From Pseudomonas phage phi9_PA9: a stretch of DNA of 64,000 nucleotides. This document shows, piece by piece, positions 28,435 to 29,877 of this stretch. The stretch is taken from sequence record PQ093904.1, one strand, 5' to 3'. The position numbers and the translations under genes are program-made. Within the stretch, counting starts at the first letter, position 1, and each line of letters starts with the position of its first letter. The notes beneath the pieces are model-generated. The model saw only the letters and a program-made list of their open reading frames with translations. It made no database searches and was not told where the DNA came from.

Positions 28435-29877
28435 CGTTATGTTCAGTATCAGTCGTTAATTGATACCCGCACCATTACGTGCAGCTCTAGCTCTCGCTAG
28501 AAGACCAGACTATATCTTCACCTACAGCATCATCTGTTTAGGTGCTCTCCATTTCGGATCACTTGATCCTACGGGGCGCAACCCCCTAGTCGTTGAACGT
28601 TCCACATATTACAGTTAAGTAACTTAGCGGCTTCGCTGCTGATTGTCTCTACCTAATCATTTTCAAACATTCGCACTTACTGTTTCCAGTTATGCTGTAG
28701 TTGATTAGTTTAACGAGAGTTTCCAGCAATTAGAAGAGTAAAACATATTCATTTCGGAATATGTGGACTTATGTATTTTACTGCATAATTTCTAAAAATA
28801 CAACCATGTTCAGATTTCCTTAGATGATAACCTAAGCAACCTGGTGTGACATTGAAAAACTCGGCGGCTTCCTTCAGTGAGTTTTTTATTAATACAGCTT
28901 CAGATTCTAATGATTCAATATGAATTCTACGATGGGTTTCCACATACATGAGATTATCATTATTCCATGGTGTATCATCATCTTCGTATTTAAACTGTAA
29001 TGACTGATTGTAAACAAGATTACTATTTTTAGTTAAACGTAATCTTAAAGTTTCACCATCTATACCAATTTCTCGGGCGCATTGTTCTATGCTGTAATAA
29101 CGAGTTATATTGGTAGTTATAAGGTCTCTGACCAAAACTGCTTTGGAATTATGAAGTCCATTGATGTGCGCATGTTCGCAATTTCTTTTACGAGTAGCCC
29201 ATTCAAGGTTTGTTAAATCATTACAATCTTTAATTGTATTTAAATGATTCACATCAAGTGAATCAACATTACCTGGATATTTTAAAAAAGCTAGACTAAG
29301 AAGACGGTGCATTCCTACAATTGTACGTTTACCTACATCCGGCTGAACACCATACATCAGATAACCATCTTCATTCATGTATGGTGAAAGATGATTACTG
29401 CTAACAGTACTAAGTACTTGTCCAGCGCGATTAATCATGTATCTACTGTATCCGGGAATATAACAGTATTCTTTTATTAATGGATGGGTAAGTTCGCCTT
29501 CAGGACATGCCCAAATAAAATTAGTTAGGCGATGATTACTTTTATTACCGTCTTTGTAAATAACGCGTAGTTTATGTAGTAACTGCATTGGTAATATGCA
29601 GTTTCTATACGTAACACCTAATACAACAGATAGTGCCAAACCGTCAAACCATTCACCTGTTGTATGTTCAGGAAAAAGATGTTCGCCTTCATCACTAACC
29701 ATTGTGGTCAGTACGCGTTTACTTATACTTTCTCTAGCTATACCACTACAGCTGATTTCATACATGCCACCAGTGTGTGGTATCTTTTTAAATCCTGGAT
29801 TTTCAATGAATTTTTTTAACATGGTTGTTATCCTATTTATTTCCTATAGGATAACTAGATATACAGTATTACAATTA
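28435..29877 (-). mobile_element. group I intron (IA2-like) with embedded HNH homing endonuclease gene
   Basis: P (AATTGCTGGAAA), Q (AATCAGCAGC), R (GTTCAACGACTA), S (AAGATATAGTCT) elements on minus strand 28520-28725; exon1 ends GAU, intron ends G; interrupts NADFDGD. Confidence 0.8.
28749..29822 (-). CDS. HNH homing endonuclease (HNH_3 + AP2/NUMOD-like DNA-binding modules)
   Basis: VIYKDGNKSNHRLTNFIWA and VNHLNTIKDCNDLTNLEWATRKRN HNH motifs; GMYEISCSGIARES and IPGYSRYMINRAGQVLS AP2-like. Confidence 0.8.
   Translation of the reverse strand: MLKKFIENPGFKKIPHTGGMYEISCSGIARESISKRVLTTMVSDEGEHLFPEHTTGEWFDGLALSVVLGVTYRNCILPMQLLHKLRVIYKDGNKSNHRLTNFIWACPEGELTHPLIKEYCYIPGYSRYMINRAGQVLSTVSSNHLSPYMNEDGYLMYGVQPDVGKRTIVGMHRLLSLAFLKYPGNVDSLDVNHLNTIKDCNDLTNLEWATRKRNCEHAHINGLHNSKAVLVRDLITTNITRYYSIEQCAREIGIDGETLRLRLTKNSNLVYNQSLQFKYEDDDTPWNNDNLMYVETHRRIHIESLESEAVLIKNSLKEAAEFFNVTPGCLGYHLRKSEHGCIFRNYAVKYISPHIPK

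Follow-up and report, generated by a model that had tools for sequence, protein, structure and literature searches.

A group I intron with an HNH endonuclease inside the catalytic motif of a virion RNA polymerase gene of a phiKZ-like Pseudomonas phage

The 64,000-nucleotide stretch of Pseudomonas phage phi9_PA9 analysed here (sequence record PQ093904.1; hereafter the window) raises the question of how a virion RNA polymerase (RNAP) beta'-like subunit is made from a gene whose reading frame breaks within its catalytic motif. The minus-strand open reading frame (ORF) homologous to phiKZ gp180 stops directly after the first aspartate (Asp) of the NADFDGD motif, and the remainder of the motif is encoded 1443 nucleotides (nt) further along the same strand. 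We assign a probability of about 0.9 to the reading that a mobile IA2-like group I intron with an I-HmuI-type HNH endonuclease interrupts this gene between the codons for D490 and F491. Megablast of window positions 27800-31400 matched 43 Pseudomonas phikzvirus records and identified the window as a phiKZ-like Pseudomonas phage, closest to PhiPizzaParty (98.9% identity) and then to phiKZ. The phiKZ genome matches this 3.6-kb intron-spanning query at 97.6% identity and 100% coverage, with PHIKZ178, PHIKZ179 and PHIKZ180 annotated there, and by this comparison the window intron is the phiKZ gene 179 intron in gene 180, an already described element and not a new kind. Group I introns with gp56, gp72 and gp179 were predicted by Mesyanzhinov 2002, as cited in PMC10914365; a passage of PMC11512511 that cites Ceyssens 2014 lists the RNAP subunits gp55 and gp180 as intron-bearing, and gp72 and gp179 have been described as intron-encoded homing endonucleases within RNAP operons (PMC12676376).

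The interrupted polymerase gene

The gene and its interruption comprise the following features.

29878..31347, minus strand: exon 1 (490 codons, closing with ...SILAPLGAD and, as its last nucleotide, the U of GAU) of the gene for the virion RNAP beta'-like subunit, homologue of phiKZ gp180
28435..29877, minus strand: group I intron, 1443 nt, opening with UAA in the exon 1 frame and closing with G28435, placed from Rfam and intron-less alleles
28249..28434, minus strand: exon 2, FDGDTVSF...EPKQRD, 61 codons plus a TAA stop at 28251..28249

On the minus strand (slash, splice site) the 5' junction reads ...CCA UUG GGG GCG GAU / UAA UUG UAA... and the 3' junction ...GAA CAU AAC G / UUU GAC GGA GAC ACU..., with the frame downstream of G28435 reading FDGDTVSFNAVYSEEAIAE... 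The boundary choice GAU/UAA...ACG/UUU is the sole split that gives exon 1 a terminal U together with an intron-terminal G. Ligation in silico yields the junction GCGGAU/UUUGAC and a 551-amino-acid (aa) ORF with an intact DFDGD, for which the predicted tryptic peptides from exon 2 are IAYIHADGR, LAFSVGVHTLNLTLR and YMTGEPK, and the predicted junction-spanning peptide is ...LAPLGADFDGDTVSF... No ATG, GTG or TTG was found in the exon 2 frame upstream of the FDGD codons, and exon 2 would therefore not be translatable on its own.

The same boundary is given by relatives that lack the intron. In PA7, fnug, SL2, 124.01 and kmuB the insert length is 0, the sequence reads GCGGAT/TTCGACGGGGAC (junction GCGGAT/TTCGAC) and a contiguous 550-551-aa protein is encoded, so that the alignment to uninterrupted beta' homologues, proposed as a check in a preliminary description of this DNA, gave the expected result. 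These intron-less relatives are 97-98% identical to the window at the nucleotide level over the query region, and the window junction differs from theirs by two silent third-codon differences only (TTT and GGA vs TTC and GGG). The silent substitutions, at 28426-28432 beside the 3' splice site, are absent from phiKZ, LC, KBMKW1 and all intron-less alleles examined; PhiPizzaParty has both, plus an extra GAT.

Assignment of the host gene to the beta' family rests on profile comparisons. The PHROG 2986 profile ('RNA polymerase beta subunit') matches residues 1-544 of the spliced protein with profile positions 1-538 of 539, and exon 2 is colinear with the final 61 residues of the intron-less homologues and with PHROG 2986 to its end. 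A phmmer search of PDB with the spliced protein alone returned only a match of E = 0.2, to Pol V, with ADFDGD aligned on ADFDGD. A beta' profile built from 30 homologues of the spliced protein matched the AR9 beta' structures (7S00/7S01) at E = 1e-15 and dozens of bacterial beta' chains at 1e-5 to 1e-4, its positions 476-546 aligning to E. coli beta' 447-517, the segment holding NADFDGD. Residues D490, F491, D492, G493 and D494 are invariant across the 30-homologue alignment, and D490 of the window protein corresponds to D460 of E. coli beta'. This alignment and the invariance of D490-D494 place the intron directly after the first Asp of the catalytic triad, and the insertion point is, in these alignments, the D490/F491 codon boundary of the LGAD/FDGD Mg-binding motif. 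Pfam searches with the gp180 and gp178 homologues gave no match. Gp180 has itself been described as a virion RNAP subunit carrying DFDGD (PMC10612078).

The preliminary description had proposed a homologue of the beta' N-terminus interrupted directly after the first Asp of NADFDGD, and both points agree with the junction sequence and with the AR9 and bacterial matches. Re-reading of the window recovered every sequence feature it had listed where it had placed it, including the 490-aa ORF ending ...SILAPLGAD and followed by TAA (29877..29875), the FDGD frame resuming right after G28435, the exon-terminal U and intron-terminal G, and the in-frame TAA that opens the intron.

Downstream of exon 2 lies a separate cistron.

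23891..28246, minus strand: virion RNAP beta-like subunit (phiKZ gp178 homologue), 1451 aa, with its ATG at 28246

The exon 2 stop and this ATG are separated by 2 nt. A fusion of the spliced product to the gp178 homologue was ruled out by the stop 61 codons into exon 2.

In the GenBank entries of PhiPizzaParty, OMKO1 and LC the 490-aa exon 1 is annotated as a whole 'hypothetical protein', and exon 2 is omitted or spurious small ORFs are called in the ribozyme and exon 2, with the joined coding sequence (CDS) missing. For annotation, the gp180 homologues of intron-carrying phikzviruses would be joined 551-aa CDS with the full DFDGD.

Ribozyme fold and guide sequence

The covariance model RF00028 matches the window at 28485..28806 over the full model (1-253); its 93.4 bits (gathering score 50, E = 1e-22) lie far outside what chance would give. 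No other Rfam family was matched in the 64 kb, and equivalent RF00028 matches were obtained in phiKZ and OMKO1. The ribozyme is made up as follows.

28446..28738, minus strand: ribozyme core, P3 to P9.2, drawn from the Rfam alignment, covariation and folds of the P9 region
28731..28720, minus strand: P element, AATTGCTGGAAA
28644..28635, minus strand: Q element, AATCAGCAGC
28598..28587, minus strand: R element, GTTCAACGACTA
28518..28507, minus strand: S element, AAGATATAGTCT
28738-33/28550-45, minus strand: P3
within the core 28446..28738, minus strand: P4, P5 with its extensions, and P6
within R (28598-87) and S (28518-07), minus strand: P7
28586..28573, minus strand: P7.1, a GC hairpin between R and S
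28569..28556, minus strand: P7.2, a GC hairpin between R and S that covaries (4/5 pairs)
28544-19, minus strand: P8
28500..28487, minus strand: P9 hairpin with a GAGA loop
28484..28467, minus strand: P9.1 hairpin
28466..28446, minus strand: P9.2, third hairpin of the P9 region
28765..28769, minus strand: internal guide sequence AGUCC, which pairs with GGAU/U at the exon 1/intron boundary to form P1, with a U-G wobble at the splice site
28743..28764, minus strand: P2 hairpin, ACAUAUUC-CGAAAU-GAAUAUGU, 8 base pairs (bp), -6.6 kcal/mol, z = -3.2

Covariation was assessed on a hand-drawn P3-P9 structure for 11 introns, namely the window intron and ten found by blastn (phiKZ, OMKO1, 124.01, two from SL2, fnug, Serratia 2050HW, PhiPA3, Aeromonas PhAER-4 and Aeromonas D3). 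Standard pairs occupy 93.2% of cells, compared with 34-43% when the partners are slid by 1-3 columns, and double-sided changes occur in 48 of the 72 pairs, compared with 6-15 in the slid controls; none of 500 shuffles attained the observed pairing values. Covarying helices are P3, P5a, P5b, P6a, P7.2, P8 and P9. P4 and P7 form standard pairs in 11 of 11 sequences and are invariant, and hence give no covariation signal either way. P9.1 and P9.2 fold stably (z = -3.2). With P7.1 and P7.2 following the 5' strand of P7 and preceding the 3' strand of P3, as subgroup IA introns have them, and with the extra P9.1 and P9.2, the intron is consistent with an IA2-like architecture. Both P7.1/P7.2 and the UAAUUG... 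start of the intron resemble those of T4 td. From known group I chemistry, the window intron would be expected to self-splice in a guanosine-dependent manner.

The covariance-model scan proposed in the preliminary description was thus positive, and the group I identity it had put forward is upheld by the model and by covariation. Its P, Q, R and S elements were all found in order where it had placed them, as were the two GC hairpins between R and S (28586..28573 and 28569..28556) and the P9-like hairpins (28500..28487 and 28484..28467), to which a third was added at 28466..28446. Its placement of the ribozyme in the ORF-free 3' stretch holds for the core elements only: the guide sequence and the 5' strand of P2 lie within the end of the HNH ORF.

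The guide sequence was identified from its position and from comparison. AAGUCC (28770..28765) immediately abuts the P2 hairpin (28764..28743), whose sequence is identical in the ORF-less intron of OMKO1. In six other related introns, inserted in different exons, a G-initiated complement of the intron's own 5' exon end lies just 5' of P2 or P3, with the following guides and exon ends.

124.01 and SL2 (N/A site): guide GUUC, exon end GAAU
SL2 and fnug (upstream site): guide GUUUC, exon end GAAAU
Serratia 2050HW: guide GUCA, exon end UGAU
fnug (D/Q site): guide GUCUCC, exon end GGAGAU
Aeromonas D3: guide GCUGUC, exon end GACGGU

The HNH ORF runs into the guide sequence and P2 with its final seven codons, and its stop UGA (28751..28749) straddles the border between the loop and 3' arm of P2. 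As GGAU/U pairs with AGUCC, at the far end of the ORF and before P2, the endonuclease ORF comes to lie in the loop of P1. An alternative guide, UAGUU near the intron 5' end (~29857), the arrangement of T4 td, would form only five weak pairs and compete with the strong hairpin at the endonuclease ribosome-binding site; the comparative pattern favours AGUCC. The P1/P2 of the Rfam alignment at 28806..28780 was rejected as P1, since it lies within the ORF and cannot contain the splice site. The hairpin at 28764..28743, an insertion in that alignment, abuts the guide sequence and makes a better P2.

The endonuclease and the distribution of the intron

Two further features occupy the 5' part of the intron.

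28749..29822, minus strand: intron ORF, HNH homing endonuclease (phiKZ gp179 homologue), 357 aa, in the P1 loop
29827..29855, minus strand: 10-bp hairpin, GUUAUCCUAU/AUAGGAUAAC, -11.3 kcal/mol, z = -1.8

The HNH ORF, proposed in the preliminary description, was recovered with Pfam HNH_3 at 35.7 bits (cutoff 24.8) and with I-HmuI (PDB 1U3E) at E = 2e-8, where ORF residues 121-230 align on chain residues 5-113 and the His and Asn positions coincide; it also matches several PHROG HNH families, including PHROG 59. NUMOD1 scored 15.9 bits, under its cutoff of 22.8. On these matches the gp179 homologue belongs to the I-HmuI-type HNH endonucleases. Six records hold the 357-aa ORF intact, at 95-99% identity. 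Residues about 87-104 (window 29500-29570), within the N-terminal 115 aa, form a degenerate second HNH-like stretch, VIYKDGNKSNHRLTNFIW, with Tyr at the catalytic His position; the repeat suggests duplication of an HNH module within the protein. The 3' arm of the hairpin at 29827..29855 contains AGGA, a Shine-Dalgarno-like sequence 9 nt 5' of the endonuclease AUG, and the hairpin is kept with G-U-compatible changes in the OMKO1 ORF-less intron and in a metagenomic contig (L020) whose host gene is 54% identical. Because AGGA is buried in the arm, the hairpin probably restrains translation of the endonuclease.

The intron is present in 8 of the 43 phikzvirus records and absent from the other 35. 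The full 1443-nt form occurs in six (both phiKZ GenBank entries counted), and in OMKO1 and fMGyn-Pae01 this site is occupied by a 481-nt derivative from which the ORF has been deleted, with the 5' 100 nt, guide sequence, P2 and core kept. Viable orf179 deletions of phiKZ have been isolated (PMC12676376), in agreement with these natural ORF-less introns. In OMKO1 (L003 2136-2616) the last ~300-350 nt of exon 1 show 14-20 mismatches per 100 nt to the window, compared with about 2-5 per 100 nt in the ~300 nt upstream of this patch and in exon 2, and the P5 extension has been rewritten with compensatory changes. Such a pattern would be consistent with an origin of the intron in a divergent donor and co-conversion on one side.

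Among distant metagenomic homologues, 34 of the 120 top-ranking protein clusters related to the spliced product (~28%) end at G[A/G]D, some with a few read-through residues. Contigs of four such clusters were inspected. Two of them, L021 (marine, 50% identity) and L023, hold a group I intron exactly at the D/F site, followed by FDGDTVS, the L021 intron having no ORF; L020 (54% identity) has the same 5' hairpin as the window intron, and an HNH ORF; and L022 ends GAC UUC AAC UGA, where the site may be slightly shifted. The gp178 homologue of L021 (MDTC01055271.1, marine metagenome) also holds a group I intron (7180-7569, Rfam 58 bits).

Introns were also observed at neighbouring sites of beta' genes. 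The gp55 introns of 124.01 (L005 1454-2856) and SL2 (L006 2330-2852) lie at LN/ADFDGD, that of fnug, a member of the phiKZ species (L008 2860-4370), at NADFDGD/QLN, and those of Aeromonas D3 (L011 2494-2790) and Serratia Totoro (L012, about 2494 onward) at DFDG/D. At least four insertion points (N/A, D/F, G/D and D/Q) therefore fall within about 21 nt across jumbo-phage beta' genes. In SL2 (L006 986-2852) and fnug (L008 1489-4370), gp55 holds two group I introns ~130 nt apart with separate Rfam matches, one after ...CTFHRN with an HNH ORF and the other in the DFDGD region. Compared with the gp55 intron of 124.01 (L005 2456-2856), the gp180 intron (28435-28770) is about 98-99% identical in P4-P6 and from P9 to the 3' end; differences are found in the guide sequence, P2, P3, P7.1 and P8, and identity between the endonucleases is only 29%. 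This mosaic suggests recombination between introns of the two beta' paralogues. It is possible, and we propose it tentatively, that the 21-nt NADFDGD stretch is a recurrent landing pad for recombining group I introns, with ribozyme domains swapped between the gp180 and gp55 introns and about 28% of distant gp180 homologue clusters broken at D/F, and that gp179 also serves as an interference weapon against the intron-less co-infecting majority, as PhiPA3 gp210 does.

Splicing, mobility and known systems

Under the intron reading, the last four exon nucleotides and the first of the intron (GGAU/U) pair with AGUCC ~1.1 kb downstream, before P2, as sequence and comparison show. By known group I chemistry, a guanosine bound at P7 would attack after U29878, and G28435 would then enter the site as the exons are ligated. 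Comparison with the intron-less relatives shows that ligation restores the junction GCG GAU UUU GAC and a 551-aa product whose DFDGD is complete. On unspliced RNA, translation would stop at the in-frame UAA and give a 490-aa fragment that lacks two of the three catalytic Asp; given this loss and the absence of a separate start codon for exon 2, an active virion polymerase would need splicing. The endonuclease presumably nicks intron-less gp180 alleles of co-infecting relatives and so promotes homing, judging from its homology to I-HmuI and PhiPA3 gp210 and the patchy distribution of the intron. An essential virion enzyme would then hinge on RNA splicing, in a phage whose transcription and translation are kept apart, and the 8/43 distribution offers a natural system in which homing, and competition mediated by the endonuclease, could be studied in phiKZ-like therapeutic phages.

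Several observations weigh against this reading. P1 is short, at 5 bp, or 6 of 7 when extended over one mismatch into sequence used by P2, and a search of the window intron for a P10 pairing gave none that was convincing. In the exon flanks, where a co-conversion tract distinguishing intron-plus from intron-less alleles was sought, no consistent polymorphism was found, the flanks of the intron-plus phiKZ, LC and KBMKW1 being the same as those of intron-less phages. Long-read ONT-cappable-seq of phiKZ gave no spliced reads for the gp56, gp72 and gp179 introns (PMC10914365). This last result, the splitting of jumbo-phage RNAP genes into several polypeptides (PMC7598289) and the annotation of a 490-aa protein by gene callers might suggest that no splicing occurs and that beta' is naturally split, so that a 490-aa fragment would end in GAD while the FDGD segment came from elsewhere or was dispensable. 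We regard this as very improbable, given that exon 2 lacks a start codon ahead of its FDGD codons, that intron-less relatives 97-98% identical in nucleotide sequence encode one continuous protein, that DFDGD is invariant in the family, and that what lies between the exons is a canonical group I ribozyme, its splice-site U and terminal G being exactly where they should be. The missing reads would also fit a real intron that in vivo splices poorly, only under certain conditions or only with a protein cofactor, and which acts as a gate on production of the virion polymerase and not as a freely self-splicing element. A P1 of only about 5 bp that spans 1.1 kb points the same way, as do the overlap of the endonuclease ORF with the guide sequence and P2, whereby translating ribosomes would compete with folding, and the general statement that such phages transcribe in a ribosome-free nucleus (PMC12908238). 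However, the core is canonical and strongly scoring, Gp180, described as DFDGD-containing, accumulates to about 3000 copies per cell (PMC10612078), and the paralogous gp71-73 is present as a single polypeptide (PMC4666361). At least one of the introns without spliced reads, that of gp72, must therefore splice, so that the negative transcriptome more likely reflects limited sensitivity, and limited splicing of this kind appears distinctly unlikely.

The mobility of the element calls for separate consideration, as the ribozyme could splice while gp179 is inactive or its target lost, the patchiness then reflecting repeated loss and not homing. The ORF-less derivatives in OMKO1 and fMGyn-Pae01, the viability of orf179 deletions (PMC12676376), the identical flanks of intron-plus and intron-less alleles, which carry no co-conversion signature, and the degenerate His-to-Tyr repeat in the N-terminal 115 aa of gp179 are all compatible with such an immobile element. 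We nonetheless consider it unlikely: the 357-aa ORF has remained intact at 95-99% identity in six records, its His and Asn align to those of I-HmuI, and a relative of gp179, PhiPA3 gp210, has DNA-nicking activity (PMC11620839). Moreover, a homologous intron with endonuclease and 5' hairpin occurs in a 54%-identical host gene, and the element is far better conserved than that gene, as expected for horizontal spread.

Among known systems, the phiKZ gene 179/180 intron has the same length (1443 nt), insertion site, ORF and Rfam match as the window intron and differs from it by strain-level substitutions only, which include compensatory changes in P3 and P7.2. The phikzvirus introns of the non-virion beta' (phiKZ gp55/gp56 locus; 124.01, SL2 and fnug) occupy the same NADFDGD-coding stretch of a paralogous target, but at N/A (124.01, SL2) or D/Q (fnug) and not at D/F. 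The PhiPA3 gp210 intron (gp211/209) is likewise of group I, codes for an I-HmuI-like HNH endonuclease and lies beside conserved catalytic-centre Asp codons of a virion RNAP gene, here of a Pseudomonas jumbo phage that forms a nucleus (PMC11620839); its host gene, however, is the beta-like gp178 homologue and not the beta'-like gp180, and its site is another. PhiPA3 gp210, of which gp179 has been named a homologue (PMC12676376, PMC12571901), nicks DNA and mediates interference competition (Birkholz et al. 2024, PMC11620839). The DNA polymerase intron of SPO1/SP82 (I-HmuI) shares with the window intron its class, its place in conserved codons of an essential phage gene of nucleic-acid metabolism and the HNH nicking fold (1U3E). 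The T4 introns of td, nrdB and sunY, likewise at conserved codons of essential genes of nucleic-acid metabolism, are of subgroup IA2, with their ORFs in P6a or P9.1 loops. The window intron differs from those of SPO1/SP82 and T4 in that its host is a multisubunit RNAP beta' homologue and its ORF lies in the P1 loop, overlapping the guide sequence and P2.

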